Part shown: positions 3,208 through 36,999 of the stretch, in pieces | Layout of the letters: the number at the start of each line of letters is the position of its first letter | How positions within the stretch are numbered: position 1 is the first letter of the stretch | Translations under genes and position numbers: made by a program | The notes under the pieces: generated by a model | Databases searched by the model: none | Told to the model about the DNA's origin: nothing | Seen by the model: the letters and a program-made list of their open reading frames with translations, nothing else | Source of the DNA: Haplodiscus bocki | Taxonomy: Eukaryota | NCBI GenBank assembly: GCA_965655095.1 | Contig: OZ296653.1 | Span: 52,948,001-53,012,000 of the forward strand | DNA: 64,000 nt | Direction of reading: 5' to 3'

Positions 3208-3273
3208 AAACAGGGATCTATTGTTAAAAGGAAGGCCATGCAAAATAACAACACAAACTTACTCTTGACCTGA
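3208..3273 (+). CDS. Probable terminal exon of the unidentified gene
   Basis: Acceptor tttgcatttcag|, phase 0: KQGSIVKRKAMQNNNTNLLLT then TGA. Confidence 0.45.
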   Translation, partial: KQGSIVKRKAMQNNNTNLLLT

Positions 3274-5339
3274 AAAGCTGTGAAGGATTTTTTCTCGGGC
3301 GCAATTTTCAAATTCAACAGTGAGCTTCTGAAGTATTCCCAACGCAATTTTCAGTAATTTTAGGCGGAAAACGAATGAAATTTATTTTACAGAAGACACA
3401 GAAGAAGGCGCTCAAACCGGCCTTCTAAGACTGTAAACAGTGTAGGAAATTTTGCCGTTAGCTGATTTAGCTTCTCGTTGGCCGTAGTAAGCTCCATTCA
3501 GCCGCAGCACCCGTTTAAGTCTAAACACCTTCACAAAGGCAAACGAAGGCCAGGTGTCCTACACAATATTTTTCTACAGAATGTCTATCAATGATCTCAA
3601 TAGCAACAATGGGATTAGCCGCGGCGACTCATTCATTTTGCGATCTGTTCGTGCAGGGTCTCTGGTTCTTGGCTGTTCTGTTCCAAACACTGTCTTTAAT
3701 ATAAGAAATGAGATCGCCCACAAATAATCAAAAAAGTCGGTTATAAAAAGCCAGTCACCTATACGTCGACAAAAGATAACGATCAAGTTACAAATTATGT
3801 TTGAGGTACACAATCGCTTTGAAGATACAATGGACAAAACAGACGCTTGGGGTCGAGATTCAGCTCACGCTAAATGAATTTTTTTTCTATCTGATGGACT
3901 CATACTCAAGTTCTCAACGTGTTTAGTCGCAAGACCCAACTACTTATCGTTAAATCACGACTGGACAATTTCTTTTGTCTCTATCTCGGCGCAACTTTCT
4001 CAGTTCGTCGCTCTCGGTCTCTCTGGTTTTCCTTCGCTCTCGGTTTTTGTCTCCGCTGAGTCAGTGCTCTGCGTCATTTACGCATCCCCCCCCGGTAGTA
4101 GAGCCTCTTTCTAGTTCTCTTTGCCAGTGCATTTATAAAAAGTCGTCATTTTTCTGTTCTAGTGCCGCTATCGTTGTCCATTTATCACGTCATCTTAGCG
4201 GCGCTTGCGTTTGCAGCTGCGGGGACACTTTTTTGTTCGGTTTTGTGATCAGCCGGCATTAAAATATTTCTTTTGTTTAAGAAGACGAGCAACTTCTCAT
4301 TAAAAAAGCAAATAATAGCTCAAGCGGGACACTCGGTTCCTTCTGGACATATAGTGGCTGAGTGAGTTTTTACGGATCATGAAATTTTGATTAGGTATAG
4401 TTTTACGCTCAGCGTAAAAATTATCCAGCAGCGGGGCTGCACTAGGGATGACTCGAAGCGTGATAAGGAAAAAAGTTCCTATCTTAACACATAGGCCAGT
4501 AGAAATGGGGCTGGCCACGTCAGCATGTTGACTCAGAGGGTATAAAACCGACAGGCCAATAAACGGGGCCAAGGGAGAGTCACAACATTGCGAGGCCGAA
4601 CTTGTTGTAAATCGTCTTCGTGATGAAAAGTGGGTTTGAATATGTGGGGTTAGGGGTTCAGAAAGTGCCAAAACTTCCTACTTCAGAGAATGGGGCAGCA
4701 TCCTGTGGTAGAGGGTGTCAAAAAAGGTCAATTTTTCCCTGATATAGTTTAATATACCTTCCTGTGAAATATTTTGCCTTCATCCGTTGTCTTTTGAGGG
4801 GTCAATGGGGTAAAGTTAAGAATTTATCCAAAATTTTGCATATACAAAGATGTCTTCAGATTTGGGAGCCAAAAACTCGGCTTTGAAAAAAAAATATCAA
4901 AATTTTGGTCAACAGATTTGTGTATACATGTCTTGAAAGCGATTGAGCCAAAATCGAGCAATCCTGCCAAATTTAAGCAAAGCTACACTTTGCCCTTTCT
5001 TGCACCCACGGCCAGGGGTACCGGGTGTCGCCCCAAATAACCCTGGGTATAATTTCTCGTTCCCTAGTTTTCAAAAGTGAAAACCAATTGCCGCTATCTC
5101 TCTAAGTTCTCAAAAATCAAAACTTTTTCTGCTGAAAACTGGCTGGGTTCTTGTAATTTCTACTTTAATGCATTTTTTCTTCAGCGCTGGCGGCCTCAGT
5201 GTTCAGGAATTATCTTTTCAGCTTCGTTCCGCTGTTTTACGTTGATTTGTTTCACATACACATGCCCATTCTTTTCATTCCACTCGCAGTTCGTAGTCAC
5301 TTTTTTTCTGTAGCAGTTACTTCTGATTTTAAACATGAT

Positions 5340-7128: not shown

Positions 7129-7669
7129 ATAAAAAGTCCAAATTATTTACTATTTTGGGTGCTAAAACCAATCATTTTAGGTGGCAAAAACGCCAGAATA
7201 GTATTATTACACTTGAAATTTTTCCAGAAAAGTTTTTGAAAACACTAATGCAGCTCGCGGAACGGTTTTATCGGTCCAATTTCGAAAATCGTCCTTAATG
7301 TTACCCGGGTCATTAAGGCAACCCTTTTGAAAAAATGAAGCTCAAAAATATTTTTCAACCTTTTCTAGAACTCAGCCATGGATTGGAATTTGTATGCAAT
7401 GGTTCCATGTCCCATCTTTGGACATCGATGCTCCATTGAAAGCCATCGATGATTTAAATTAGGGTATATCGGTGACCATCGACTATTATCAATGGATGCT
7501 CAACCTGAACTACGATATTCAGGGATTTTCCGATACTGTACAGTGCGGATTCAGATCTGAACAGCGGTAATTTCATCAAGCGTTAGATTTTTGCGATTTG
7601 ATTCAAAAGCCAAAAAAATCTCCCCACAATTTTCGTTCCATATATTGTGTTGAAATTTTAAGAAAAAAC

Positions 7670-10505
7670 TTGGAACTCGATTGAACCGTAGTACCGCTGT
7701 TCACGAGACGGGGAACGGGCCGAGATCCACAAAAAATTATAACTCCCAAGTTAATCAAAGGGAGATTGTATTTCGGAGGCAGGCGATGGGGTTCTTCTGC
7801 AAAATATATGCACTGTATTTTTCTTCGATCAACTGAGAGGGGTATCTCGTAACTGTTGACTCTTATTTAAATAAACTGAAGAAAATGGTCGTTGGGCAGA
7901 CTTTGATTTAACTTGTTTCAGAACTTTGTGCTAAACATTTTTCTATCGTGAGTAAATACAATATTAGGAAGATAATAACAATTAACGGAATAATAATGAG
8001 TGACAAAATTATATATTTGTCTTCACGCATCAAAAAAATACTGAATAGAGACTTCAATAAGTACTTTAATACAGGTTCGAATGATAGCAACGAATCACTT
8101 TGAAGAAATTATTACAGCAACTTTACGTTGATAGTCAGAAAAAAGTCTAGTCACTGATAGAATTGGATCGCACACCAATACCACAACTCAATTCGTAAGT
8201 GAATGGGAAACTTTTGTCCCACTAGACTCTCAAACGAGTAACTTAAAAAAATCAAAAGTCCTGGACTGTTCAACAATAGCTTTTCAATACCGATTCTCAA
8301 AATTCATTTTCCCAACTTCAGTCCTGGACTCAGTTGAGGAAAAACGGCTTTAACCAAAATAGCAAATGCCCGGTGAGTCAACTCACTTTTTAGCAGCGTT
8401 TACCAACGCTTCTTTCACTTAGTTTCGTACTTTTACCGCTAGGGTTTTTTTGGCCTTACTTTTATTCGTCCGGTGAATCGTATCCAATATTTTCTGAAGA
8501 GGCTCATCAACTTTCGCTGGTTAATTCTTTGATTTCATTTCGGTACATCAATCATCAGTTTGGCAACTACTTGATTCTCACTTTCTTGACTTACATCAGA
8601 TATGATTATTCAACGTTGGTCGTATCAACTGGCTAAACGGGTGTCTTAAATGTGACTAAGAAAATTCTTCTTCGTTTCCGTTCGTATATGTCACTATTCT
8701 GATTGACAATTGACTATTCCTTCGGGTGATGTGTCAGCTCTTTCATTTGTCACGCTTCGTCAAGTACTTCCGAAACAGGCGATTGAATTGTCATTCTTAA
8801 GCATTACCAACAAATTATTCATGCAAAAACAAATGTCCCCAAAACGGTGTAATTTCTGTGTAAACTTCGTAATAAATTGTGTCAACCATAAACGCTGGGG
8901 AAACAAAATGAGCACACCCTCACGCGCGGTTCTTAACGTATTTTTAGCAAGATATATTTTTTTATTTTTATTTTCGATATTCACAATCCAAAAAAGCGAT
9001 TTTCTTTAAGTAATCAAACTTCCGTTCCCAAAAAGTCATTTTCTGAGCCATTTGAGGTCCTTTTTCTTAACGTATAAATTGTTTTCTAGAGCGGGGTGGT
9101 TATTTGCTCTTAACAGAATCAAACAGCAGTATTTTAACGAATTGTTGATTTCTCTGATTTGTCTCAACAGAAATTCATTCAGTTTCTCGCAAAGTCTCAT
9201 TTTTGGCCGCTTTCGACTATTGAGGGGCAGCTTTAATGACGATTTTCTTAACATACTGGCAAATTTTCAAAAACTCTCTGGTCAGTTTCCTAGAAGACGT
9301 TGTTAGGAACCTTTTGTCAAAATAAGAGTTTTCTATTTTCGGAAAAGTGATGGGGGGTAGCCATTCTAAAATCCACCTTTTTCAAAGTCAGCGATTTTTG
9401 CTAGTTGTAAATTAGCGGGTCGGCCATTTGTACTTTGTTACGTTTTTTATTATTATTTTCATTTTAATGAGTTTTAGACTTTCATTTGATATTTTTTCGG
9501 TTGAATTCTGTTGGCTAGTCGTTGACAATTAGGCAAAAGAAACACAATTTTTGGCGATTGTAGACTGATTGGGGCGTTTTTTGGCGACTTCTTCCCTAGT
9601 TCTCTATAAGGAGTTAATTTATTCAATTCATCTTTTCAGCCACAACAGTTCATCTACATATATTCCGTCTAACTATTTCGAGCTTTTTTGTTGCGTGATT
9701 TGCTCGGAAAAAACTTTTAATTGAACTCAATTCACCAGTTTCTGCACTGTTTATTTCATTTTCGACAAATTTTCACTATCTCAATTTCGTGCGATTTTGC
9801 TCATATTCCAAATATAAGCTTTCCTGCAGATGTAGTTTACAATGGTGAATTTTATTTGTCGCCATCTTTGCAATCTTAGGGAATTTTTGATAAAAACGTT
9901 GAGATCTATTTAAAAAAGGTTTGATTTTTGGGAGCGGCAATGTAAATTTGCTAATACGTGGGGTGGCGGCCGTGGGCGTGGTCAGAACTTTTTCAAATTT
10001 CATTTAATTTGTAATTTTTTTACTTGCAACAAATTGTTTCTCTCCGCTTTCACTTTTATGAACTTCTGAACTTGCAATTGAACTGAGACCTCACCATTTT
10101 ACTTTTTCCACTGACCGTAAGGCTTTACGTTTTTATTTTTCGACTACCCATAACCTTTCACTCGCAACGAAAGTCACCCAACATGTTTTTAATGGAATGT
10201 TGTTGTCAATGGTGAAAACCGTTTTGCTGTATACATCACAGTCTTTGAGTAAAATGACGTTAAAGTTCGGGCTCGAATTGGGGCTAATTTAGTTTTTTTT
10301 TGCTGCGATTACTATGCTATGTTAATACGCGTGCCAGGGTTGCTCCAAAAAAAATAAAACTTGCAGCACGGATTGTTTTCATTGCAACGTAAAGTTTATT
10401 GAGTTCGATATTTGTTTTTCACCTGTCTTCCTTTCTGCTAAATTTTACACAATTCACGTGCACTAACGTAACAAATACAGTATTGAAAAAATGGCAAAAA
10501 TCATG
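7670..10505 (+). repeat. ~2.9 kb dispersed repeat, copy A
   Basis: Colinear with 30132-33150 throughout. Shared blocks include gccgagatccacaaaaaa, gttcttctgcaaa, gtcactattctgattgacaa, ggcggccgtg.gcgtggtc and ttcacgtgcact...aaaatggcaaa. Confidence 0.9.
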
Positions 10506-12827: not shown

Positions 12828-13872
12828 CGAGAAAAAAATGCGTTTTTTGCAAGGCATCTTGAAAAACCTTGTAAGATAATGCATTAGCCTTGCAAGGCTC
12901 TTGAAAGAGACTTATTAGTTTTGCAAGATTAACAAGTGCAAGACTTATTAATCTTTCCAGATTCTTGGAAGAAACTTATTAGTCTAGCCAGATTCTTGGA
13001 ATGAACTTATTAATCTTTCCAGATTCTTGAAACAGACTTATTAGTCTGGCCAGATTCTTGGAATGAACTTATTAATCTTGCCAGATTCTTGAAACAGACT
13101 TATTAGTCTGGAGAGATTGTTGAAAGGGACTTATTGGTCTTGCGAGGTTGTTGAAAGAGATTTATTAATCTTGCAAGATTCTTGAAAGGGACTCATTAAT
13201 CTTGAAAGTTTCTTGCACTTAAATTCATTGGTCTCACACAATCTTCAACAGTAATTTCAGGCTCTTCCAAGTGAAAAACACTCCTTCATACCCAAAAATG
13301 CACATTTTTCTGTAGAATTCCTGTTTGCCATCTTTTTTCTTTAACTCAGTATTTTTGGAAGAGATAGTTCATCAAGTTTTTGTCATTTTTTCCAGCTTCC
13401 AAAGATAATTTTAGTTACAAAAAAAAGAATAATATAGAGAACAACACTTCATCTGATGATATCTTCAAAGTTGTGCTGTGTGGTGATCATCATTGTCATC
13501 AGTCTGATTTCAGAAAGTGATCAAGTTTTTCCAGTTGAAACAAACATTTAAAATTTAATTTCTTGTGTTTTTGAATTTTTTGACAAGTGCAAGAAAACTA
13601 TCGATTACTCCGACCAGAACACTTTTTTGAAACATTTTACTAACTTCTAAACTAAATAAATTATGAATAATTTATCTTCAAACTAAAACCGATTTGCGTT
13701 ACAACCGTTACTTGTTTTTCTTTCTCTCCAGAGCTGAATCGAATATTATAAATGAGTTTCTTGCAAGATTTTTGAAAGAGCAATGCATCACTTGCAAGAT
13801 TCCCGCAAGAGACGCCTTTGCTGCAGGATTCTTGTAAAATCCTTGCAAATAATGTTTTTTTTTCATCTGAGA
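12828..13872. mobile_element. MITE/foldback-like non-autonomous DNA element with imperfect terminal inverted repeats
   Basis: Left end gaaaaaaatgcgttttttgcaagg...aatgcatt resembles the reverse complement of the right end aatgcatc...ccttgcaaataatgtttttttttc. Contains a subterminal tandem array. Confidence 0.55.
12910..13215. repeat. 31-bp tandem repeat (~9-10 units) with 62-bp alternating dimer
   Basis: Unit acttatta(a/g)tct.(t/g)ccagattcttg(g/a)aa.... Central units alternate ...gaaacag / ...ggaatga. Confidence 0.85.
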
Positions 13873-15700: not shown

Positions 15701-17120
15701 TAAAATCAAACAAAGTGATAGAATAATAAAATAAATACATGTATAGCGATCCTTGTACAACAGTGATTTTAATTAATGCGACAACTTTAATGCATAAGTC
15801 AAATTTAAGCACGAATAACTTCGGGAATAATCATTTTGGACAAAAGTACCAGAAACAAAAATATTCTTAGAATTTTTAGGAGATTATAATGGTGTTAGTT
15901 TGAAAAATTTCCAATGAATCTAGCAAAAACTAGAAATGCGTTTTTGGCCAAATTTTCTATTCTTTTCAGGATTTCGTATCATTAAAAAAATAATGGAATT
16001 CTACTTCATCAATAGATGCCCCTGATGTTTCTACGACAGCTGATATCATCTGTAGGCGGAAAAGTTTTCAAAAACTATTCCAAAATTCATCTTGAATCTA
16101 CTAAATTTGAAAATCAATGTATTAAAATAGGATGGTAAGATAATACTTTTACTTTATGCAATTTCTTCTGAAAATTCAAAGTTGTGAAAAAAGTGTTATA
16201 GATAAAAGTTCTGGGAAATAACCAAAATTAACAAACTATGTAATTTGTTTGTCGCTATTTTGCGTCATTGTCAAGATTTTTTAAAGAAAACTGCCAAAAT
16301 TAGTCATTTTTCGCCATGCTTGCATAGTTTATTTAGTCAACTTTGGGACGCGAGTTTCTACCCTTTTGAAGTACTTCTTTTGGCAAATAAAAAAACCATG
16401 TCGTAGCCGTCTTAATGAGCTTTCTCAGAGGACCTTTGTTTACTCTGATCTCCAATTTTTTACTTCTCCACTTAGGATTTTGTAAAGCTTATATGATCAC
16501 AAAGGTGGTCTATCGACTTGATTATTGTCTCAAATATTAACAAAATAGTAATAATCTAAAATAGCATTCTGTGGAACCGATAACACGTACAATTGTGAGT
16601 GAAAATTTTAAACTCTGAAGTACGTCGTGTATTAATTTTTGACTCAGCGCACCTTAGAGATTACAACTAACGTGGGTAGTTAAAAAATTTTGAGACGAAC
16701 TAAATTTGACGTGTAGTCAGTTATATACAGAACAGAACTGCTACTTTTCTAATTTTCAGAAAAATATATGAATTCCTTTTCAAACTATAAACAGAGACGC
16801 AGTTGCTGCTCAATATTTTGCGGAAGCGTTTTTCAGTGAATTGAACTAACCAGAATGTCTGAATAAAATTGGGAAAAAATATTTGCTTGAATCGAATACA
16901 ACCTCCGTCTAGGGGGATTCTGTCAACTTCCAATAAAACCGTCTAAGCGAATTCTGTCAACTTCAGCCAAGAAAACTCTGCAAAATAAGTAAATCGTACT
17001 TACTCTAATGTCCATGCATAGTTACGTCCATGCATAAAACGAACGCTCAAGTGTCAAAGTATGCCGTTTTGGTTTTGAAAAAATCTTGGCAAAACTACCA
17101 TTTTTATTTACGAATTATTT

Positions 17121-17270
17121 ACGAATTACTCTGACTATGATAAGGTGAGGTTGTCTAAAACTGGCCTAGAGAGCCTGGAGAAAGTGAAGTAAAATTTCTG
17201 TACAAATTTTATAAAGGTCACGTATTAAAAAAAAAACATAAATAAGTTATAGTTTTGTGGGTCCTTTACA
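17121..17270 (-). repeat. 3' LTR (recognisable part)
   Basis: Starts TGTAAAG on the - strand right after a purine-rich tract. About 10 mismatches in the first 110 bp versus 29282-29433. Confidence 0.75.
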
Positions 17271-17289: not shown

Positions 17290-18230
17290 ACTGCGTCCCG
17301 CATTTCCATTTATGGTAAAAAAACTTCCAGTATGTGGAAGTGTCAAGATCGTTAAAAGGGCAGCAGAAACTACACAGCTGAGATTTCTGATTTCGGACTG
17401 CTCTAAGACCACAACAGTCCAAAATTCTTCTGTTCTTCGATGTGAACAAAATGTCATAGATACCAGTTACCATTGTTGCTATATTGTTCGCGTTGGAGTC
17501 GTAAACATTTTTTTACAATTTTCCTGCTGCGTGGCAGTTTCGGGAACCCCAAGAAACCTGTAGCAGTCAGCAGCAGTGAGGCGGTCGAAATTTGTTTCAG
17601 CAAAAGATTGAAGTATTTCATAGAGACAATCACGGGCTCCTTCATTTGCTTGGGTCACTTGTTTCTTCTTTCAATTCTTTAAGGTGAGTTGTACTTTGTC
17701 GGAAGTCGCGAGCCAAGACATCATTATCCTTTAACAACTTCTCATAACGGTTTCAAAAGAGGTTAAAAGACTTTCGGAGGCCGGAGAGTTCATCTTCCTT
17801 CTCTTTGACTTGTGCTTCTGACTTTTCAATTTCATTAGCCTCACGAAGTAGAGCAGCAAATTCTTTCATCTCCATAGAAGGTGTATTGCAGCCGATGGTG
17901 TGATTATTGGGAGGCGACGTAGAATTTGAAATGTGCATGGCGTCCGGAAGGACAGGAGGAGCAACAAGAGAGCAAAAGTTTTATTCTACGATGGGGTCTG
18001 TCTTGACAGCGAGGGTGGTCATTGGTTTCGGAGGAGCCCAAAGCGCTGAGAAACCAACAAAGAAAGAGCGGCGGCGGCTGTCGAAAACAGGGTGAATCAT
18101 AACGCTATTTGTTGAAGGTACGACGCAAACCGCGTGGTGTGGAAATGGGTCCACGATATACACGGTGTCACGACAAGCTACATCCTTAAACTGAACATCG
18201 ACTGTGAGAACTCGGGACCGGGAGTGAGAC
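17290..18230 (-). pseudogene. Accessory ORF downstream of env: coiled coil, DnaJ-like J-domain and Cys-rich tail
   Basis: One frame across two stops gives ...MEMKEFAALLREANEIEKSEAQVKEKEDELSGLRKSFNLF*NRYEKLLKDNDVLARDF.... After frameshifts: DCYRFLGVPETATQQE/IVKKCLRL/ANNIATMVTGIYDILFTSKNRRILDCCGL...CSFC. Confidence 0.7.
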
Positions 18231-18671
18231 CTGAAATGAAAAAGCGCTTGAAAAAGTTTACTATAAAACCCAAAAAAGAAAAGCGGTAAGTTTCTTATGC
18301 ATGGGCGTGGGCGAAAAGGTTCTTGAGTTAACTCAAGCACACGGCGAAAACGTTCTGCCTTAGAGCCGGAATCTGCAACTAAGCGTCGAGAAAAAAACCT
18401 CATTCAAGCGTCCAGAAAAAAAGTGTCAAGCAATGGTCAGCAAAAAAAATTTCACAACGTGTGAGTTAGATACGACATAAGAAGGGGTGTGAAAAAGAAA
18501 AACTCGCGGTACAAACAGGAACAAGAATGAGTTCTCGCTGTAAAACTGAAGATAGAATCAGTATTTGACCTCAGTGAACTGACACTGGACGCAAGTAGAT
18601 TGTGATACATAATATATAATAAACAGGACATAAAATTGGAAGGGGAATAGGAGGTTTGCGGTGGTCAAGCA

Positions 18672-20990
18672 TTAGGTGTGAAGTACGTGTGCGACAACGG
18701 AGTAGAGGAGGGGTTGTTCTATGGATGCGTTGCTTTTGGGACAAGTGGCATCTTTGCGACGTGTGAGAACTTCTTTGGCAACTTGGGATGACACTGAAAA
18801 TTCGTCTACGGTTAAATAAAGAAACGCAGTTGATGCTTGCGTATCATCTGCGGCAAGCTCGTTAATAACGTGTAAAAATCGTCCTTGTGTACCGCGGAAG
18901 AACCGTTGCGGATGAGTGATCAACTGCTTCTACTGACGTCAGAACAAAATGAAACGTAGTAGTGAGAGATGGGCTCAGCGACTTCTTTAAGTTTATCAAA
19001 ATCCATAGTGTGAACTTCCTGTAACTCTGCTAGTTCCATGCGGACACTAGTCAGGACAGACTTGTGTGCCTCGCTGTGAGAATACATGTTAAACTCGGAA
19101 CTAGGTGGTGGTAAAGACTCAATGAATCTTTGCAACGATGGGGTTAGTTGCACTCTGGCGACAAATGTCTCCGGACGAGTTTCATAGTATTCCATGTCGG
19201 CGTTCAAAACAAGATCTCCATGGTTGACCGTCAGTATCGACCAGCAACATGGGCGAATGACACATGCTTGACAGTCAATAGTGGACATTCTAGTGACATG
19301 AGAATCGGTATCGTTCATCGTCGGAAGGTGGCGTCTTCGTGAGATGACGTGATAAAGACCATCTGCGAGGTAAAAAGCTTGCGGGACATTAGGTAACGGA
19401 ACTGATACAAGATGACATTTTCGAGGAACCGGAACAGTAAAAATGTAGAACAGGAACGTGAGACACAAAGAGGTTACATCTGTGGTATTAGAAAATCCTT
19501 TACGATAGAGCTTGATTCTATTCGTGTCTGAGCACTGTTGTAACATGGCAACACCTAGTTTGGCATACGGGGACTTGTCGATCGCGATTGTTAAATAGTC
19601 ATGACGGAACTGATACAAAGAAGCAATCGAGCCATCCTCACTGGGCTGATACAATGGAAGTTCACGAAGAAGATTGAATGTGGCAGACTTAGAAGTCATC
19701 GGTATCCCAAGTACAGCACAGATACCAAAAACTAGGATGGAAACTACTTCAAATACAAATTGAACTTCGTAATACGTGTCTTTGTAACCAACTTACATGG
19801 CTGGTGTTGTATTAGTTCCACGATGAACTTCTTCTATTGTGATCCCTTAAACAATCTCGGCTAGACGAATGGGTGTTAGGAAAATAGGAAAGACAGAGCC
19901 GGACGATAATGAAGATACTGCTGAATAAAGATTAGTTTTGTAAGAAATGAAGGCTGATCGGTAGGCTTTATGACGAGTGTAGACAAGATCCAAATACGAA
20001 GTGCATTTTGCAACTTTAAAAACAAGATTGCTAAAGTGTTTAGTATGGACCATACAATGGGGAAAATAGATCAAGGAATGAGTGAGTTGATCTATAGCTC
20101 TGGACGTGGTGGTGAAACAGTTTTCGACTACATCTCTAATTGCCTTGACATTTTCCAGTGTCTTTGATATCTCCGAACGGAAGAGAACAAATTTTCTGCC
20201 GTTGGTGGTTTGAACCGTTTTCATTGCTTCAACAAATGAATTCTGTTTGGCCATGAGGGTTGCTATGCCCTTCTTCAAATCTTTAATATCGCTGCACAGT
20301 ATGATAATAGAGAGAGCACTGAACACTGAATACTGCATCTTTTATTGGGTTGCCAAAAAAGCTAGTTCCTCCAGATGCGGCCATGAATACAGGAAAAAGG
20401 CAACGTTGCAGAGAATGTCCCGTTTGTCCTTTGTCTTCGTTCGGTTTCGTGGGCGACGGTGCGAAAGAATTGGCAGCTCGATGGCGTTCAAGGTCATTGT
20501 TTGCAATGGCTTTTTGTTCATTCAAGACAAGATTCAGGCGATCTTCGATTCACTCAGCTAAAACTGCCAACTTTGCTAACATATCATTGCTTTTGACCAC
20601 CCAAAACATGGGTGTAGGAAAATATTGGCCTGTGGTGGAATCGATTTTATCTAGTATTGGAAAGATTTTGATGCGCCTCTAAGACAATCTGCCTTAGACG
20701 GAGGGCTCCAGCGGGGTCGAATGCTGGTGGTTAATGAATTTGTGAAGGAAGTCTAAGCTTACTCTCACGATCGGATGTGACGGCTTGATAAGCGTAGATA
20801 TACACTGCGCCTCGCTGGAAAACCGGGTCTTTTTTCTCGGAGCTGCGCTTGTTTGGAAAGTAATTTCAGAACTGATCATAAGGAACCAGGATTTCAAGAA
20901 GATAATGGCATTTAGCCAAGGACATGTTTCACGGCGTTGGTACTAAACAAAAGTAGAAAAAATTAGAAAGACACGAAGGGTACACAATGG
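18672..20990 (-). pseudogene. env: env-like (class I fusion glycoprotein-like) gene
   Basis: Downstream of IN. Hydrophobic signal-like start (~20990-20930); fusion-peptide-like LFPVFMAASGGTSFFGNPIKDAV; heptad region (ORF 19847-20338) ending SSLSSGSVFPIFLTPIRLAEIV; Cys-containing ectodomain (18920-19699); tail ITHPQRFFRG. Confidence 0.75.
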
Positions 20991-21701
20991 AAACAAGTGA
21001 GATAAATGACTGATGAGAACAAAAAGGAAGACTACTTTTTCTTATCATGCTTTGATTTATGGGAGCTATGTTTCTCTTTACTTTGACTTGTGTTCTCTGA
21101 CTTCCAATGGCTGGGAAAGTGTTTCTCTAATTGGTGAAGCGGTTGTGCATGACGTTGAAGCAATGTTGACGAACGTAATTGACCCGGACATACGGCTTGA
21201 CTATCAAGCTTGGCAGACTCTTCAGGAGTAGCTGAACAGTCCAAGCTTTCTGCGGCGTTAGACATGGGACTCTCAACTGAAGGAGAGGAGAAAGTTGAGT
21301 CTAGTTGTACGGAAATTTTCATGGAGAAACTTGAAAGACCAAAAAGTGTCATTAATTACAAATTGGGCTTACGATGGAACTTGAAACAAATCCAGAGGTG
21401 GACTAAAAGGAGTGGTTCTGCTAGGAACCAAGGATGCTCGTTCTGGTCTTGCAGCAGTTGAAGAGCCTTGGATTGGAGTTTCCAAGATAAAAAGTGCAGA
21501 AAATGGGGCTGGACAGGCACTTCGGGGTCGAGGGCTGGGTGGAATTTGGTCAAACAAGCTTTGGGAACAGTTACAATGTTGGTGAAGAGCGGTGTGTGGT
21601 TTTTGTGCCGATTTGTTTGTCAGCTCCTTGGGGAGATTTGGTTTACGCCTTGGAAGCTGTAGTTCTTCCGGGCGTTGAATGAATGGTTTTAAAGGGTCTT
21701 A

Positions 21702-22950
21702 TTAAACGATGGTCTCCTTTTGATTCGCTGTGTTCTTGGTTTTATAGGTAACTTCATTAAGACACTGTATAATTGTGAAAAGACCTTTCCGCATGGATGA
21801 AAGTTCAGGACTCAATCCTTTGGGGGTGATGGAGCTATGTAGCCAAACACTGTCACCTGGCTGGTATCGGGGGCCATGCGTTTTAGAATCACACAAAGGG
21901 TTGCGTCGCAGTTGAGCAGCTTGAAGATGAAGGCGTGCTGCTTCGTGAGTTCTTTGCATGTCGGCACATTTTTGTTGGATAAACTGATGCACATGAATCT
22001 TGTTCCATTCTTCTGGAGAAGGGTAGTGATTATCAATGAAGAGGTTGATTTTTTCGCCAAAAACAAGAAAATGGGGTTTCTAACCTGTCGATTCATGGAC
22101 TAAGCTTCGAATTGTCATCGTCAAATTCGCACGTTGCTGAGTCCAATGGTTTTGGAGGTCAACAAAAATTTTGGACAACATATTCAGGAAAAGTTCTCTT
22201 CATTCGTTCGATCACAGCGTTCGATTAGGGATGGAAGGTTGTAGTTCGCGTTTAATCAATCTGAAGGGACTGCATGAGACTTTGGTAAAAATTAGATTCA
22301 AAGTTTCGACCTTGGTCTGTGTAAATGCTCACGGGAACGCCAAAACGAACAATCCGAAGCTCAAGTAGTGCGGTAGCAGTCATTTCAACTGTCTGATCTG
22401 TCAATGGGACTGCCTCATACCACTTTGTGAAGTGATCACCAAATAATGCAAAATATGCGTTATCATTTAAGACCGGAAGAGGTCCAAGGAAGTCAAAACC
22501 AATGTGAGCAAAAGGGAAACTAAGAAGGCCAAATGACAAGGCTGTGTCTTTGTTTTTGCTTGGGGCTGTTACAGTGTTGACAAACAAGACCACTTGAGAC
22601 AAACACACCTACATCTTTCTTACTTCCTGGCCAATAGAATCTTGGTCGAAGTTTATCTAGGGTTTTTGTAACTCCTAGATGGGCAGCTGTTGTGGAATTG
22701 TGAAATGATTCTAGGATTTTGGGTCGCAATGTTGTTGCAACGACTTGTTGTAGGTGACATCGGTCTGTGCTTGAATCCTCAAACTACGGCACAGGATATC
22801 ATTCACGACGTTGAGGAAGTCAAAATTGTTCCAAAAAAACCAAGTGTTTATTGAATGGCCTTGAAGGACTGAGCGACGGGGCTGTTTCCTGTTTTCCACC
22901 CAAGAAAGAACGGTGCTAAGAGTTTGATCGTCTTCTTGTGCATGTTGCAT
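21702..22950 (-). pseudogene. pol: pol: integrase
   Basis: Zn-binding HNSTTAAHLGVTKTLDKLRPRFYWPG...CQHC; core PFAHIGFDFLGPLP...GDHFTKWYEAVPL...FGVPVSIYTDQGRNFES; GPF-like KGLFTIIQCLNEVTY. Confidence 0.95.
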
Positions 22951-23013
22951 GTCATTCTTTGTTCCCTTTTCTTTTTGAGTCCCGCTAGAACTGGAATTCT
23001 GCTGTTACGGTTG

Positions 23014-23430
23014 CATATAAACCGTAACTTTGGCGAGCGAGTTGTGGAAGACATCCGTGATGATTCCTTTCACTTCAAACCAATTAAGCCTGTCGAGTCC
23101 TGTCGAAAGTTGTTGTTGGCTTATCTTTTCAATTTTGTGTTTCTGCGCGTGTTGCAACATGGTTTTGAATGCTGCACGTAGGGAACTATACGTCGGTTTG
23201 TTCCAAAATCTGGGCTTGATAATCAAGTGATAAATGAATGTAGTCGGAGAAATTTGTTGTGCGTAAAGGTTTCTTTTCGACGCTTTCGACCCAAACTCGA
23301 GGTATGTGGTTGGAAACTCTTCCCTAACCTGCTTGGCAATACCTCCAGCCAGCTTGAAGTCTGCTAAAATGCTATGGGTTTTTTAATCTGTGGAATCAAA
23401 TAGATATCCACTCATTTCTACTAGTTCGAA
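23014..23430 (-). pseudogene. pol-embedded macrodomain (TARG1/OARD1/Poa1p-like)
   Basis: In frame with RNase H, one stop: FELVEMSGYLFDSTD*KTHSILADFKLAGGIAKQVREEF...FIYHLIIKPRFWNKPTYSSLRAAF...STGLDRLNWFEVKGIITDVFHNSLAKVTVY. This parallels TARG1 GDLF..LAHCIS.D..MGAGIA..YLITK..KPTY..GLDRLQW..EVF..ITVY. Confidence 0.88.
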
Positions 23431-23699
23431 TTGTTTTAATTTTTCTGTTTGGCAGACAATCTGTACGAAGTCAAAACTTTGATGACTTCTCTCTTGGGCA
23501 TCATCTTTCGTATAGAGATGCTGTTGCTGCAATTTTGTCTTCGCTTGCTTCTTCTTGTAGGTGACTGGTTTTCTTCTGTTGCCCGTGCCAGGAGGTTTTG
23601 GCCATTCTGTGTCACTTGCTTCGTCGTTATTCAGCGTTGGGTGCTTTGCTTCTGCACCGCGCGTAAGTGCATACACCTGATCCGTGGTGGCATCTTGAC

Positions 23700-24070
23700 T
23701 GGGAATACTGGACATAGAGTCCGAGTGTCCAATATTTTTTCCACTGCGGTGGACAATTTCGTATTCAAAAGTTGCTAGTTTTTCTAGCCAACGTGCTGTT
23801 AAACAATCAAGGCCTTTGAAATTATGAAGCCACTGCAAAGGTCTCTGATCAGTGACAGTTTGGAATTTTCTTCCTAACAAGTAAAACTTGAAATATCTGG
23901 TGAAATTCAAAATGGCCAAAAGTTCACGCTTCCTGGCAAAAAATCGGCTCTAGGCTTTGCTGAAGGATTTGGATGCGTGTCAAATGACGCGTTCTGGACC
24001 ATTTTGAACTTGAGCGAGCACTGCACCCATTGCATGCTGGCTAGCATCAGTATACAATATGAAAAAATTT
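23700..24070 (-). pseudogene. pol: pol: RNase H
   Basis: YTDASQHAMGAVLAQ...RELLAILNFTRYFKFYLLGRKFQTVTDQRPLQWL...ARWLEKLATFEYEIVHRSGK. Confidence 0.95.
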
Positions 24071-24197
24071 TCTCGTGCTCAGGAAAGCCAAAAATAAGGC
24101 GGAGGTGAGTATCGTTTTCACAACTTCAAATGCTTCTTGGGCTTGGAAATCCAGAGGAAATGTTCTTATTTCTCGGTCAGTTGATGCAGTGGACGGG

Positions 24198-25000
24198 CTA
24201 TTTTTCAAAATCTTGCTCATATCTTCTATAGTATGAACAGTGGCCTAAAAAACGTTTGACTTCAGTAGCGTTCTTTGGTACCGGATGCTTGTTAACTGTA
24301 GAAATTTTCTCAGGAAAGGCTTGGATGCCTTCACGGCCTACATCGTGGTCCAGAAAGGGTACTGTCTCTCGGAAAAACTCACATTTAGTTGGAAGGATTT
24401 TTAGATTGGCGTCTTTGAACCTTTGAAAAACTTCACAAAGACGCTCTAGGTGTTCTTCGATTGTGCGAGAGAAAATGATGCAATCATCCAAATAAGGAAT
24501 TGTGGACTTCCTAGTTAGGCCTACGAGTACCTTTTCCATGAGACTCTGAAAGTTTTTGGGACTACCGGTGAGGCCCATTGGCATGCGTAGCCACTTAAAT
24601 GATCCAAATGGTGTCCTGAACACTATAATCCTGAATTGCCTCTTCTATGGGGAGTTCATAAAATCCCCAAAATCTGTCAATGGTAGACAAGTAACAACTG
24701 CCTTCCAAAGTTCAAAGGTTTCTTCGATGGATGCTATTGGCCAGCATGACTTGATGGTCTGCTTGTTCAACTGCCGATAGTCAATGACAAGTCTCTGTTT
24801 ACCATTTTTCTTCAGAACTAATATAGCAGGTGCACTGTGAGGCCTATGGCACGGCTCAATGAAGTCATGCTCAAGGAATTTGTCCAATTTTTTCGCGAAG
24901 GTCTGGTTTGAAATGCATTGGCATCCGGCAAGTTTGAAGTTTGACCGGAGTAGAACCTGGATACAGTTGAATTTTATGTTTCACGAGATCAAAGTTTCCC
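24198..25000 (-). pseudogene. pol: pol: reverse transcriptase
   Basis: RLVIDYRQLN, FRTPFGSFKWLRMPMGL, YLDD, KCEFF, EVKRFLG.CSYYRR; frameshifted. Confidence 0.97.
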
Positions 25001-25449
25001 ATGTCCCGTTCATCTTCAGAGATGACATTTGAAAACTTACGGAGTAACTGCGCAAATGTCGCATGGAAACTTTCGTTCAATACTGGCTTAGCTTGGTGGA
25101 TGATGCTTTTTGAGGTCATACATGGTGGTGACTGTGGTGTGCTTCTGTTTTGTTTGAATGACTACAATGTTCTGGGCGAACGTGTCGTCCTGCAGAATGT
25201 TCCTAATGTTGAACCTTTGCAGATCTTTTGATCTTCTCCGGGACTAATGATACTTGCTGGAATGGCATCCTCTTGAAATTCGGAAAGAGTGTTGAAAGCT
25301 AAGACATTTTGTTCGTCGCACAAGGATTGTGAAGTTTTGAAGATTCCTTGTTTTGTCAGTAAGGTGTGATCATCAAGGTCAGATTTACCTAGAATAATCG
25401 CTTCATATGCGGAAAGTATGAAGGATGTTTCTCTGGCAACTAATCTCAT

Positions 25450-25880
25450 GACTGGGTTGTTCTAGGTCTGTACCGTTGCTGTTCGATAAAAAAAAGTTTG
25501 CAGAGGTATCTCGGTTCAAACGTAACATCATTTCAGAAAACATAGGATCACACTTGTGTGTTTCAAAAAACTCAGGACCTAACAAACACTCAATTTTAGA
25601 AGCTTCCAGGACAAGCAAAGTGTGTCGAAAAGTCATTGATTCTATCTCTTCAAGTCAGCTTCAAGTTCACCTTTTACTTTTATCTCGCCTTGATTGGCAG
25701 CTAGGAGTCGTTTAAAACATGTTACCAGAGATGATTGTGTCTTTGGAGGAAGTCAAACAAACATTTTGCGGCTCAAACAAGGAGCAGCTGCGCCTGTGTC
25801 ACAAACGGCATCAAACCGAATTTCACAGACCGTAATTCGTACGAAAACACTTTTGTGATCCACCACTGAATTCAAACATT
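25450..25880 (-). pseudogene. pol: pol: aspartic protease
   Basis: DHKSVFVRITVCEIRFDAVCDTGAAA (DTG at ~25792-25800) and downstream ECLLGPEFF. Confidence 0.85.
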
Positions 25881-25905
25881 CCGTCTATTGGAGGTTTTTT
25901 GAGTT

Positions 25906-25950
25906 ACCTGCGCAGTTGCCTTGTTGATACGTAGGTGCTTTCCGTTTAAA
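25906..25950 (-). promoter_or_regulatory. -1 programmed ribosomal frameshift signal (gag-pol)
   Basis: Slippery heptamer T TTA AAC in the gag frame, 7-nt spacer, then hairpin ACCTACGTA...TGCGCAGGT. The -1 frame is the protease frame. Confidence 0.75.
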
Positions 25951-27031
25951 TTTTGGCGTCGGGCACGGCATTCGTGCCTGAAGTGGCCAATTTTGCCACC
26001 ATTGAAACGTGCTTTGCACACACAGCTGGAATGGTTCGTTCGGCAACAATGTTTGCATTTTCTTCATCGCAATGCTGCGAACTGGAACTTCGGTTTCGTT
26101 AGTTGTTTTTGGAGTTATCTGAGAAGCGAACTTTAGAGCTATTCCTCCGATTGTTGCTGTTTCGAATGGTATTCCGCTCGTTGGGCTGATTAGGTTTGTT
26201 AAAGTTGGAAAAGTTGTTCTTGCGTCTCGGTCCTGGTGAGGGAGACCGACATCGGTTAGTATCTTGACTGTCTGAGTGTTCTCTTTGATTGTTTTGTGAA
26301 GCATTTCTGTCGGCTTCTGCTGGCTTAGCCACAGCGTGTTGAAGTTCTGTGCGTAAACTGCGAACCAACTCAGTAAATGTATCGAGGGGGGTCTCAATGC
26401 TGATATTCTTAACACCTGAAGTTTGTAATTTTAAACCGCTGATTTCAAGAAAAGAATGAGTTTCCACTGCTGCTTGCAGTGCAGCGTCATCATCTGCGGG
26501 TTTCGCTTTGCGAAACTCCCACCGAGCTTTGGAGTTGGACAAACCGGAAAAAAAGTGGTCAGCAGGATTTCATTGCGAATAACCTCGACAGGATAAGCAT
26601 TGCGGGCTAAATCTTGCAACTCTTGAAATAGTTGGGATTTTTCGTCCATGTTGTTGACGGAGAGCTTCAACTTTAGCCTTAAGTACATTTTTATTAGGAG
26701 CATACTGAGTTTGAAAAGCGTGACGAAGGCGATGAATGTTAGTCTGCTGGGATCGAGTCAGCCAGTGATGGCAATTTGAAGCGTCGCAACTGAGGCGGGC
26801 AGAATTGAATTCAGGACACAAAGCACCTGAGGGCTGGTTTTCCCAATCAGGAAGAGAAGTAACGGTATTGAACTGAGAGACAAAGTCTTCAATGTCAGTG
26901 GTGCCATCAAACGGGGCGGGCAAAAGACAAGAGTAATTAGGCGTAACTGTGTCACCAGATGACATACTGGAAGATTGTTGAGAGGCCACGTTTGGGACTT
27001 GATCGTCAGGATCCACACGAAACAGAAACAA
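25951..27031 (-). pseudogene. gag: gag with two CCHC zinc knuckles
   Basis: PAPFDGTTDIEDFVSQF N-terminus; LQDLARNAYP; knuckles CKHCCRTNHSSCVC and degenerate RFNGGKIGHFRHEC; frameshifted. Confidence 0.88.
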
Positions 27032-28262: not shown

Positions 28263-28964
28263 AAATTAGTCTAGTTGGTCACCCATACGGAAGAAACTCA
28301 CTGGATTGAAGTGCTAGATCAAATAAAAGCAGGTACTTATCAAACGTGTTGATGGACAAACAATATTCTTCTCAGTGAAATTTCAGGCGATGATCAACTG
28401 ATTGAAAAAGTACTTTGTCGTGGGAACCATACTCCAAGAATAAAAATTGAAAAAAACAAACGCAAGAATTGACGCGGGTTAGCAAAAAAGGGCTGGAAGC
28501 GCAAAAAGAAAAACAAAAGGTAGTTTGATAAGCGAACTTGATATCAAAATGATATCAATTTAAACGCCAAATATCGAAAAAATGGAAGAAAAATTTGAAA
28601 TTGTCAAAAAAATTGAAAAAATGCAGCGCTGATGATGTTTAGGAAAAGAAGGCAAAAACCAAAACACAACAGGGCAGAAAAATATGCTAGAGCCGAGAGG
28701 AAAGCTTTAAAGGATGCCTGTGGGTGACATTTAAAATGCTAAAAAATGCCTGTCACCATTTGTTATAGCGACCCTGCTTTGGGTGCTATGATTGTTGTGA
28801 GCTTTTTTATCTCAGGAATGAAAATCTGTGCGCACTTTGTACTGAAAAAATTTTAAAAAATATGTTAGTTATTACGGGGTTAACACGTTTATAAGTAAGT
28901 TGAAATATTTTCAAACAAACAGTGAAAATTATAGAACTTTAACATTTTTCTTCTTTTCGTGATG

Positions 28965-29030
28965 TAGAGAAAGAGGGGAGAGAGAGATAGATAGAGGCGG
29001 AGAGAGAGAGAGAGAGAGAGGGAGAAGAGA
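28965..29030. repeat. (GA)n microsatellite
   Basis: Directly visible imperfect GA run. Confidence 0.9.
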
Positions 29031-29281
29031 AATTTCAGATTTTTTTATTTAAGATGAGAAAAGTTTAATTTTGATACACGGATGAGCTGCTGTTTACTGC
29101 AAGAAAAGATTGTTAAGATTGTTAATAGAGGCGACGGAGAATTGCGTGATGGGAAAACAAATCGCGAGATGGCGGCTGATACGAAAATGTCTACTTCACT
29201 AATCGTAGCTATAACGAGTGATGACTGATATACTTCATCACTCATTTTCTACAACGAACAGATACGAGGAACGAAATATTA

Positions 29282-29433
29282 ACGAATTACTCTGACTATG
29301 ATAACGAGAGGTTGACTAATACTGGCCTAGAGAGCCTGGAGAAAGTGAAGTAAAAGTTGAGTACAAATTTTACTAAGGTCACGTACTAAAAGCAATATTA
29401 TTTAAATCAGTTATAGTTTTGTGGGTATTTATA
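29282..29433 (-). repeat. 5' LTR (part shared with the 3' LTR)
   Basis: acgaattactctgactatgataa...ctggcctagagagcctggagaaagtgaagtaaaa...gttatagttttgtgggt matches 17121-17270. Confidence 0.75.
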
Positions 29434-30131
29434 TTTCCTTCAATTGCAATTGTGATTGAAAACTCTTGGATCGTCTGTTTTACCTCAAAAGGATAACAAT
29501 AACTCTAGGCGCGTTTGCAGGCAAGAATTAACTCCGTCAAAAGCGGATTTCAGATGTTTTATGGTTTTGACGTCAGCAAACCTGGAACAGACCCATAATA
29601 AGAGTTTTCGAGACCAATTGTTTTGACAAGTTCTTTTACAAATGAACCAAACAGATTCCATAGGAAAATCCAAATTTTCCGCTTCATTTTGTTGGAGCAA
29701 AATGGATACAATTCAAAGCCCAGGTTTCAAAACAGACAGTTTTGAAACTATCGAGTCCGTGTCAGCAGAAGACAAGTGAACAGCTTTCCAAGTGAAAAGC
29801 TTCAAGAAAACCCTCCCTATTACTCTGCATAGTTAGCTAATATATTACTTTATCCTGCTCAGACAACGACTGAATCCGTTGAAAACTGAGGCAAAAATAC
29901 GGCTGTGGAATCGCTGAAATTGAGAAAAAAAGTTTTAGAGAAAATGACTTTTTCCAGTTTATCTATCATGAAACTTCCGATCAAAAAATGGAATGCCGAT
30001 ACAAGTTCCTATCCGGTACAAGCTCCTACTTTTAATGTCAGTTTTCTCAGAGCGATCATGAAATCGGTTCAGCACTCAGGCTAAAACTATCCAATTTGAG
30101 GAAAAGTATGTAAAATTCTCAGGAATGTAAC

Positions 30132-33100
30132 TTCCAACTCGATTAAACCGTGGTACCACTGTCCACGAGACGGGGGATAGGCCGAGATCCACAAAAAAAT
30201 TTATAACTCCAAAATTAATCAAAGGGAGATTCAACTTCGCAGGCATTGGGGTTCTTCTGCAAAGTATATGCCTGACTCTGTAATTTCTACCGTTCAACTG
30301 AGAGGGGTGTCTCGTAGTTCTTGACTGTTTTAGGAAATCGAAAAAATGTTTTGTCTCCTGAAGACTTGAATTAACTTAGTCAATCCTCACAAACAAATTT
30401 TCTGAGATAATAAATACAATAATACTAGGATAAAAATTGATAATAGAATGATAACGAGAGACAATATCACTGGTTCGCTTTTGCACATCAATTTATTATC
30501 GATTACATACTTCAATAATTATGCAGATACAATAAACAAATTCTAGCATCAATTTAATTTGGAGACAATTTACTACTACAACCTTCCGTTGATAGTCATT
30601 AAACTTCTCCTGTCTACCGGAATTGGATCGAACACCAAAACCACAACTCGACAAATAATCAAACGGGTAACCTAATCTCTCTAGACTTTCGAACTAAGAA
30701 CTAATCGATTTCAACAGTCCCGGACTGTTCACAATATCTCTCAAAATAACGATTTCCCAACTTCAGTCCTCGACTAAGTTGAAGAAGACAACAAACAGCT
30801 TTAAGCAAAGTAGCAACTGCCCGGCAACTCAACTCGCTTTCTTTTGGCCCGTCAAATCGTAATCGTAACTGTTCTGATCCCAGATCAAAATAACGTTTCC
30901 GTAAAAAATCCAAGGAAATCCATAACTTCAGTCCCAGACTAAATTACGGTCGCTCGAATAAATACGACGGCTTCAAGCAAAGAAGCAACTGTCCCACAGT
31001 TCGACTTCTTTCTTTTGGCAGTGCTTAGGGACGCTCGTTTCGCTCATGGCTTTCTTGGTTTCGTATTTTTACCGCTAGGGCTATTTTCGGCTTTGTCATT
31101 ATTCATCCGGTTAATCGTGTCGAAAAATTTATAAAATGACTTATCAATTTTCGTTGGGTATTTCGTTTGTTTCACTTCGGTTCGGTAACCATCAATTTTG
31201 GTACTACTCGGTGTTCATTTTTTAGCTTACATCAGTTATGATTAATCGATTTTGGTCGTATCCACTGGCAAAACGGGGGTGTTAAAAATGATTGAGAAAA
31301 ATCCTCTTCGTTTCCATTCGTTTATGTCACTATTCTGATTGACAAGTTCTTTCGGTTGATGTGTCAGCTCTTCTATTGGTCGCGCGTGACCAATTACTTC
31401 CAAAATAGCTGGTTACATTATCTTCCCTAACCATTCCCATCATAATATCCGTGTAAAAAAAATATCCAAAAAAAGGTGTAAATTTTGTCCAAAGTTCAAT
31501 AGTTATTTGTGTCTATCATAGACGTCGTAAAAATAAAATGAGCACATCATTACACGAAATTTTCAATGTTGTTTCTGGCAGTGTATACTGTGTCATAGTT
31601 ATTTCCAATATTCATGGTCGAAAAATGCGATTTTCTGAAAGTAGTCAAAATTCCATATCCGAAAAATCAAATTTTGGTCACTTTGAGGTCATTTTTCTCA
31701 ACGTTGACGTTTTTTTCCAGTGAGGGGGTTACTTCGTGTTAGCACTTTCCCAGAAAGTGTTTTAACGAAAAGATGAGCTCTCTAGCTGGTCTCAAAAAGA
31801 AGTTTTTTACTTTTCCGCAAAAGTACCGATTTTGGCCATTTTTGACTACCTGGGTCCAGTTTCAAAGTCGATTTTCTCAACGTACAGGCAAAATTTCAAA
31901 AAATCCTTAGTCGCTTTCCTCGGTGAGGTTGTTAGGAACATTGTGTTAAATGAAACTTTCTATCTTGAAGAAGGTGCGGGGGTGGGCGCTAGCCGTTTTT
32001 GCAAGTCGACATTTTCCAAAAACCGTGATTTTGGTTAGCTGCAATTTTGTGGGGCGGCCATTTGTAGCTCGCTATGCTTGTTCTATTGTTATTTTCCTTT
32101 TTTCTCAAAAATAAGCTTTCAACCGCTAGTAAAATGATTGCTTTCTATTGGCTATTTGTTAACTAATAAGCGAAAAACTGCGATTTGTGACGTTTTTAGG
32201 CTGTTTTGGGCTTTTTTGGCAATTTCTTCCTCAGTTCTCCAAAATGACTGAATATAATATATTCACCTTTTCAGGGACCTTAGTCCATTCAATTATCTTC
32301 CGCTTAAGACTAATACAAGCCTTTTTTGATGCGTGCTTCGCTCAGAATAAATTTTTAACTGAACTCAATTTGGCAATTTCGGCAGTGCACTTTTCGTTTG
32401 CTACAATTTTTCAATATCTTAATTTCGTCCGATTCCGCTCATATCCCAAACTTAAGTTTTCCTATGGCTGTAATTTACAATGGTGAAAACCGTTTGTGGA
32501 TATCTTTTTTCATCTTCGAGAAATAAGCAAGCAAACCTTGGGGAACATTAAAAAAACAGGTCTAATTTTGAGCAGCGAGAGCGTAAATATGCTAGTACGT
32601 GGGGTGGTGGCGGCCGTGCGCGTGGTCCGAAATCACTCCAAAAGTAATCCTATTGTATTCTTTTTGTATTTATAACAATTTGATTTCACTCCGTTTTCAC
32701 TTTTTTGCGCTTCTAAAGTTGCAACTGAACTGTGAATTCACAATTGTACCATTTGCCGGACCGTAATAATTTTCGTTTTAATCTTTCGACAACTTTTAGT
32801 ATTCAAAATGCGGTGAAAATCACCCGACTTGTTTGTCTTGGAATTTAATTTTTAATGGTGAAACCCGTTTTGCTCTATCTATAATAGTCTTTGAGAAAAT
32901 GGACGTCAAAGTTAGGGTTCGAATTAGACAAAATATTAAATTTTATGCTGCTGTTGCTTTGCTATGTTAATACACGTGACAAGGTTGTTTAAAAACAACT
33001 TATACTTGTTCCGCGGCTTGTTCACATTCCAACGTAGTGCTTATTCCGTTCAATATTCACTTTTCACGTATCATTCTTACTGCTAAATTTCACTCAATTC

Positions 33101-36940: not shown

Positions 36941-36999
36941 CTTAGTTCACCTATTCGTGTGGAGAAATGCGTTTAGAAGTCATCAATCTTTTGTTTCAG

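Follow-up and report, generated by a model that had tools for sequence, protein, structure and literature searches.

A J-domain accessory gene downstream of env in Ty3/gypsy elements of Haplodiscus bocki

The window, by which we mean the whole 64,000-nucleotide stretch of Haplodiscus bocki DNA analysed here (assembly GCA_965655095.1, contig OZ296653.1, positions 52,948,001 to 53,012,000), contains a decayed, env-bearing Ty3/gypsy copy on the minus strand. It runs from about 29430 down to 17110 in the order 5′ LTR, gag, pol, env, a fourth open reading frame (ORF4) and a truncated 3′ LTR, and its ORF4 is an inert relic. The features, all on the minus strand, are as follows.

28764..29432, minus: 5′ LTR, decayed, ends approximate (blastn against the 626-nt LTR of a young relative; locator motifs)
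28741..28758, minus: primer-binding-site-like word directly after the 5′ LTR
25944..27016, minus: gag, broken (tblastn, 71–85% to family A gag)
21083..25977, minus: pol (protease, RT, RNase H, Macro, integrase), broken (Pfam RVT_1, RT_RNaseH, Macro and rve on window segments; tblastn)
23008..23382, minus: Macro-bearing open segment between RNase H and integrase (Pfam Macro 23.2 bits, cut-off 22)
18675..20924, minus: env, broken (tblastn, 47–77% to family A env)
18231..18240, minus: predicted splice-acceptor-like site, pyrimidines then AG (codon phase the same across families)
17324..18230, minus: ORF4, broken in the window copy (stops at about 17983 and 17755, frame breaks near 17665 and 17514, gap of about 32 nt near 17491)
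18035..18190, minus: predicted N-terminal SH3-like beta barrel of ORF4, KOW/Tudor-like, approximate (models of intact relatives; VIA-align)
17600..17875, minus: predicted long helix of ORF4, likely coiled coil, approximate (helix 119–211 in the family A model)
17408..17568, minus: J domain of ORF4, without the HPD loop in the window copy (profile score, Pfam match of a sister copy, 30-locus alignment)
17363..17416, minus: [C/H]CG...CxxC motif, likely zinc site (17-protein alignment)
17110..17270, minus: 3′ LTR remnant, truncated (137 of 159 aligned bases identical to the 5′ LTR)

Elsewhere in the window, positions 12883–13252 hold about 11 units of a 31-nt tandem repeat, and diverged copies (71–85%) of one repeat of about 3 kb lie on either side of the element region (7667–10476 and 30129–33121). 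Exon-like open frames at 36946–38076 (plus) and at 46022–46378, 50892–51401 and 55776–56168 (minus) may encode parts of a ligand-gated ion channel and an IP3/ryanodine-receptor-type channel, which they resemble.

A preliminary description of this locus proposed a J-domain reading frame, split across three frames, between env and the 3′ LTR. Three J-like peptides are indeed present on the minus strand (17568–17521, 17519–17496 and 17491–17408), and as one peptide, each break filled by X, they reach 13.6 bits on a profile built from 13 host J domains, a value that none of 2,000 shuffles attains (best 2.6). Unjoined, neither window piece passes the Pfam DnaJ cut-off of 27.8 bits (one scores 12.5 bits, the other has no match); the natural open frame of a sister copy, L002, passes it at 32.6 bits, spans 273 codons and matches solved J domains with a best E value of 1.5e-5. 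The suggestion that the HPD loop was lost here through a small deletion also holds, as about 32 nt are gone exactly over the HPD codons relative to L002. Searching the organism's own genome at the DNA level gave 41 matches, from which 30 loci were fetched and aligned: HPD is read in 12, other letters stand there in 17, and the window copy alone is gapped. Intact elements likewise have ORF4 between env and the 3′ LTR, and the CSFC noted after the J domain falls in a motif, [C/H]CG...CxxC, that recurs after helix IV in an alignment of 17 natural proteins. Two points needed correction. The segment before the J domain does appear as a helix in our models but is about 90 residues long, not about 60; and ORF4 begins about 250 nt upstream of the interval first described and gains an N-terminal beta barrel. 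In full, the fourth ORF has about 310–370 codons, and the J-like stretch occupies its 3′ part. The preliminary description did not extend to this barrel, nor to the many intact families, the coding constraint and the cassette exchange set out below.

Across the 30 loci, which form a subfamily that we call W, median pairwise identity is 78% and singleton variants have an N/S of 0.96; on these two grounds the subfamily is dead and decaying. Two of its ORF4 copies lie 12.1 kb apart within a 1.66-kb repeat (L071–L074; G000:C1:84.06–84.10 Mb) and belong to tandem elements. This pair had raised the idea of a J ORF inside the LTR, which intact elements rule out, since they carry a single ORF4, ending about 30–80 nt before the 3′ LTR.

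The genome holds at least 14 ORF4 types (A, W, B, C, D, G, H, H3, M, N, O, P, Q and R, from fetched full stretches), and every fetched type has gag, pol, env and then a fourth ORF of about 310–370 codons. Family counts are lower bounds, as the protein and Pfam genome searches score the best candidates only. Among 109 near-full-length matches listed in one genome search, about 79 have a stop-free ORF4 (counted by eye). Outside W, LTR pairs, where found, are mostly 98–100% identical, and all four young copies checked have 4-bp target-site duplications and LTR pairs 99–100% identical. Intact relatives have a gag with Pfam matches to Retrotrans_gag and zf-CCHC, the latter a CCHC knuckle, and the Ty3/gypsy pol order of protease, RT, RNase H and integrase. 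By LTRs, target-site duplications, gag and pol order, these are Ty3/gypsy LTR retrotransposons. The primer-site word is conserved across families and, we presume, resembles tRNA-Leu sites. The termini at L061–L070 are non-canonical: family A has TA...TA and family B TG...TA, both with target duplications of 4 bp. A further array, at L075–L078 (G000:C10:69.55–69.59 Mb), has about 14 units in tandem. Each unit, of about 2.73 kb, is made up of an ORF4, an LTR and a piece of the leader, and many contain HPD in an open frame of 267 codons.

Two other features of the backbone deserve mention. The Macro domain between RNase H and integrase exceeds the Pfam cut-off in A, G and the window and falls below it in B and in P0036, a pol relative from the protein search discussed below; our literature search returned Macro ORFs in retroelements only from fish epsilon-like endogenous retroviruses (ERVs). 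It is possibly a second counter-defence module. Family B env matches Pfam Baculo_F (29.1 bits, cut-off 24.1), and the envs of A and G, about 50–60% identical to it, have no Pfam match to that family. Env also provides an independent test of the association with ORF4, as the intact elements were otherwise picked through ORF4 itself. All of the best 30 loci of an env-only search have an open 326-codon ORF4, with HPD in 29; these loci represent one family, and 28 of them are near-identical young copies.

In AlphaFold models of two families, A (pLDDT 73, from a 9-sequence alignment) and G (pLDDT 83, pTM 0.39, from 17 sequences), an N-terminal beta barrel is followed by a proline-rich, disordered linker, then by a helix about 90 residues long and the J domain. 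The predicted layout of ORF4 is thus a KOW/Tudor-like barrel, linker, long helix, J domain and terminal Cys/His motif. For the J domain, Pfam DnaJ scores exceed the cut-off in W (L002), A, B, G, H and P0216 (32.6–53 bits); P0226 misses it at 18.3 bits, and no DnaJ match is reported for family M, P0248 or P0276. A profile of the 17-protein alignment matches solved J domains at an E value of 4e-13. Foldseek searches of the models against the PDB returned nothing at E ≤ 0.001; the top 12 rows are J-domain proteins, followed by Spt5/NusG KOW and Tudor domains. With VIA-align, J-domain proteins fill the top eight rows (Z 9.8–8.5), and J matches overall have Z of 8–9.8, with an rmsd of 2.1–2.4 in the best-fitting rows. 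HPD is exact in 14 of the 17 aligned proteins and altered in three, at 22–40% identity to the first protein, and its three positions are near-invariant (H in 16, P in 14, D in all 17). On its Pfam match, its modelled helical hairpin and HPD at the level of the family, ORF4 fits a J-domain protein of class C; the window's own copy lacks HPD.

The best non-J fold matches are Spt5/NusG KOW chains: VIA-align gives the barrel Z 8.2 with a DSIF KOW chain (rmsd 2.7, 62 aligned), 8.0 with an Spt4/5 chain and 6.8 with a Tudor domain, which are middling matches (Z about 8, 13–23% identity). An atlas search of the barrel was uninformative, with a best score of 0.78, and neither the PDB nor viral fold searches returned a whole-length match combining barrel, long helix and Cys motif. 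The long helix is likely, from the models, to be a coiled coil, through which ORF4 may dimerise. After helix IV two cysteines are invariant, the first ligand position is Cys in 12 of the 17 proteins and His in five, and CxxC is complete in 15; because His takes the first Cys place in those five, we regard the motif as a likely zinc site. As for where the J domain came from, a tree of 31 J domains over 77 columns sets 13 host genes apart from ORF4 and from a more distant lineage, K, described below, with weak support, and names no donor. The genome also has a host-like single-frame gene (L184:3717–4943) with membrane segments and then a C-terminal J domain.

That this frame codes for a maintained protein is borne out by constraint among copies. 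In Nei–Gojobori counts, dN/dS between natural open copies is mostly 0.1–0.2 (A–A2 0.11, A–A3 0.16, C3–C1 0.13), similar to env (0.06–0.17) and below gag (0.20–0.36), and it is 0.28–0.41 in pairs involving older copies. Young and older copies of G differ with pN of 0.036–0.040 and pS of 0.19, a ratio of about 0.2. Purifying selection acts on ORF4, which is a genuine accessory gene under constraint. When different types are compared, synonymous sites are saturated and pN is 0.19–0.49; positive selection behind the A/W and B/C divergence was considered and ruled out, pS being saturated and pN lower. ORF4 diverges far more quickly than RT or env, median identity over 107 distant pairs being 75% for RT, 63% for env and 30% for ORF4.

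ORF4 is swapped as a cassette between backbones that are 94–100% identical in RT and env, independently of U3. Between B and C3, leader, gag, pol and env are 96–100% identical, whereas most of ORF4 and U3 is 51–63% identical, and pS is 0.009 in env against 0.77 in ORF4. Identities (%) in RT, env and ORF4 are 97/99/57 for B–D2, 97/99/70 for C3–D2, 94/96/61 for H1–H3, 99/100/68 for N1–Q1 and 96/96/81 for P1–R1, compared with 98/94/94 and 99/99/97 for the unswapped pairs A–A2 and M1–M2. Breakpoints cluster directly before the acceptor and directly after the stop codon. Reassortment of ORF4 and U3 is seen in L092 (B-type ORF4, C-type LTR) and D1 (D-type ORF4, C-type LTR), and W combines a distinct ORF4 with an A-like LTR start. 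The window's subfamily is itself recombinant: an A-like backbone (about 80–89%) runs through the first 200 nt or so of ORF4 and resumes in the LTR, and the linker, helix, J domain and tail between are 47–60% identical to A. In W, then, the barrel stayed with the A-type backbone and the remainder is of another type; between swapped types generally, the barrel is usually better conserved (64–79%, versus 50–69% for the remainder). Trees agree with exchange, those of RT, integrase and env leaving W/A and B/C/D unresolved and that of ORF4 separating them with support of 96–100; deep splits are congruent (two to five broken copies were omitted per tree).

The 5′ boundary of ORF4 suggests how it may be expressed. 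Families become alignable immediately 3′ of a pyrimidine-rich AG whose codon phase they share. For C, D, G, H, M, P, Q and R, no in-frame Met is reached until 41–120 residues further on, within the conserved part; these two facts make it likely that ORF4 is a spliced 3′ exon. Families A and B have an early Met of their own, and we could identify no start codon shared by every family. In G2, G3 and H1 a donor-like site some 300 nt past the primer site would give a junction ATG, and in H2–H4, I, P and R it would give ACG. Splice junctions that create a start codon are described for some Drosophila env genes in bioRxiv 10.1101/2023.08.03.551782. The donor-like site was not found in A, B/C/D, M or O, so a universal splice-made start is uncertain for these elements. 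An exact-pattern search revealed no spliced ORF4 retrocopies of families A and G, and none of the joints listed for four contig sets, which have even, DNA-like cover, falls at the acceptor.

Between env and the acceptor, four related family groups (G, H, M and related) carry two to seven copies of a tetraloop hairpin (for example at L183, about 3015–3480, and upstream of ORF4 in L236–L259). Among the 31 distinct instances, taken from 31 regions, pair 4 varies in a compensatory way (C-G 18 times, T-A 13 times), and G-U outnumbers A-C by 12 to 6. Family B has the same core word on the hairpin 5′ arm; the array is absent from A and W, the window's lineage. Lying just upstream of the acceptor, it would be missing from spliced ORF4 RNA.

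These observations suggest a working model. ORF4 would be expressed from a spliced RNA via the conserved acceptor, its helix would dimerise as a coiled coil and its Cys motif bind zinc, and its J domain would recruit and stimulate host Hsp70. Judged from its HPD, stimulation of Hsp70 is quite probable; the main ground for calling ORF4 an Hsp70 recruiter is that HPD, which Hsp70 stimulation requires according to PMC13254874, is retained at 24–40% identity. The weakest step is the target. Here the predicted KOW/Tudor-like barrel would deliver Hsp70 to the element's own transcripts and their bound proteins would be remodelled, so that genomic or env RNA in unspliced form escapes retention or silencing by the host, much as with Rev or CERV. 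CERV, from the C. elegans Ty3/gypsy element Cer1, is a spliced accessory protein that has a leucine zipper and a putative zinc finger rich in Cys and is needed for genomic RNA export (PMC10309623). What leads us to favour an own-RNA target is the KOW-like barrel and the way it tends to remain with the backbone, together with the hairpin array in G, H, M and related families and the CERV precedent. Taken as a whole, recruitment of Hsp70 through HPD and its delivery by the barrel to element transcripts for remodelling is a tentative reading, which we would put a little short of evens. Against an RNA target, the barrel's matches are middling and Tudor domains score too, which leaves RNA binding a conjecture; the window's lineage is without the hairpin array; and fast divergence, with old types persisting on near-identical backbones, suits a host-protein target no less well.

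The strongest alternative, which we consider less likely, takes up that last point: ORF4 might be a counter-defence protein whose barrel reads a host protein and whose recruited Hsp70 dismantles a host complex, such as PIWI/Argonaute or a chromatin silencer, with host pressure maintaining many types. SV40 T antigen would be the parallel, as it is said to dismantle a host complex, Rb–E2F, by means of Hsp70, and the host J protein DNJ-12 reportedly works with Argonaute in silencing. Rapid divergence, repeated exchange of synonymous-saturated types between near-identical backbones and the Tudor domains among the barrel matches all fit, and host J proteins act in silencing in the case of SILENZIO (PMC8616336). 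However, pN is well below pS in nearly every region compared, which gives no sign of positive selection, KOW chains score above Tudor domains, and the barrel tends to travel with the backbone.

It is improbable that ORF4 is a dedicated co-chaperone for the folding or assembly of Gag, Pol or the particle. A J domain with HPD, kept in every family examined, would suit such a role, and many viruses need Hsp70 (PMC13254874), but tight co-evolution with structural proteins is not what one sees where RT and env are 99–100% identical and ORF4 only 56–68%. We give little credence to an LTR transactivator that binds its own U3. Foamy-virus Tas and HTLV Tax are LTR transactivators, ORF4 lies between env and the 3′ LTR, families B and C have diverged jointly in ORF4 and U3, and the barrel is predicted to have a Spt5/NusG-type KOW fold; however, ORF4 and U3 types reassort in L092, D1 and subfamily W, and joint inheritance with a cognate U3 is therefore not found. 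A shade less credible is a J-like fold with an Hsp70-independent role, to which the few basic residues in helix II of families G, H and M and the members below the Pfam cut-off might point, because H, P and D are among the few near-invariant positions. Passive capture of a host DnaJ fragment without function for the element can be set aside: W copies do decay neutrally, but that decay is post-insertion, the frame is open and constrained between active lineages and at the env-selected loci, and no host J domain nests with ORF4.

On our preferred reading, that of an Hsp70 recruiter, ORF4 has partial counterparts in several known systems. The usual view is that retroviruses and retrotransposons rely on J proteins borrowed from the host. 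Certain viruses instead carry their own: polyomavirus T antigens, phage Rki and giant-virus DnaJ resemble ORF4 as HPD-bearing J domains of a mobile genome that are known or presumed to harness host Hsp70 (PMC13254874), and giant-virus DnaJ proteins are among the rows of our viral fold search. Those carriers are DNA viruses and phages, whereas ORF4 belongs to a retroelement; the virus section of the same review names no retroelement, and 'transpos' does not occur in its main text. With the env-carrying Ty3/gypsy elements, the 'errantiviruses' in the wide sense of PMC13524379, our elements share the LTR-gag-pol-env-LTR plan, the domain order and, in family B only, an F-type env signal, but their pol also carries a Macro domain and their env is followed by a fourth gene. 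The main text of that survey has no occurrence of 'DnaJ', 'J-domain' or 'macro', and seven of its supplement files have none of DnaJ. CERV is likewise a Ty3/gypsy accessory protein, but has H, M and G-protein-like domains, and 'DnaJ' is absent from PMC10309623; the RNA role of ORF4, by comparison, is our conjecture. The ORF3s of bdelloid LTR retrotransposons are also modular accessory ORFs before the 3′ LTR, common to several lineages (PMC5408684, in which 'DnaJ' and 'chaperone' do not occur), and fish epsilon-like ERVs have extra ORFs, some with Macro domains (PMC4977317). Unlike ORF4 with its J domain, these bdelloid and fish ORFs encode GDSL esterases, DEDDy exonucleases, coiled-coil/transmembrane proteins, CNPase or Macro.

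In the full-text literature searched, mostly that outside subscription journals, we came across no J-domain gene reported from an LTR retroelement; a prior annotation is possible, and as far as that literature goes a J-domain accessory gene is a new kind of gene among retroelements. If elements encode a conserved J protein of their own, the strategy of T antigen and Rki would reach reverse-transcribing elements as well, and invertebrate env-bearing elements would gain a new accessory-gene class. The interest lies in the gene family, not in the window's relic copy. Many natural versions of ORF4 on almost identical backbones offer a ready comparison for identifying the host process acted on and for understanding the persistence of old versions.

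ORF4 is not confined to this assembly. A profile search of 1.84 billion proteins returned full-length relatives, and the ten clusters looked up come from ENA or Logan. The best genome counterpart of P0216 is 42% identical (among 129 scored of 1,441 candidates) and that of P0248 56% (among 118 scored of 2,031); as neither is closely matched by any scored candidate, ORF4 is present in at least one other assembly. A metagenome scan for P0216 gave no relative. P0036, with its weak Macro domain, and a P0216 cluster member both list a longest contig of 12,273 nt, which suggests that they may belong to one element. By RT, the nearest named relatives are 40–53% identical and come from fish, a mollusc and an arachnid.

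Finally, the same genome contains an older gypsy lineage, K, with RT about 28–36% identical to that of family B and two tandem J-domain ORFs before the 3′ LTR. Both exceed the Pfam cut-off (40.8 and 41.2 bits), and a coiled coil precedes the second. Two J-domain ORFs at the same position in lineage K would make Hsp70 hijacking a recurring strategy of retroelements. This leads to a broader and still more tentative picture, of a 'complex' invertebrate retrovirus-like clade with a spliced Hsp70 co-chaperone gene, drawn from an ancient, interchangeable pool and swapped between genomes like counter-defence cassettes, which together with the hairpin array would strip silencing or retention factors off transcripts; K's two J-domain ORFs would be the recurrence. 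All seven lineage K regions examined are decayed; the loci are L187:3533–4845 (minus) and L220–L234, with about 3 kb of unassigned sequence between integrase and the first J domain.
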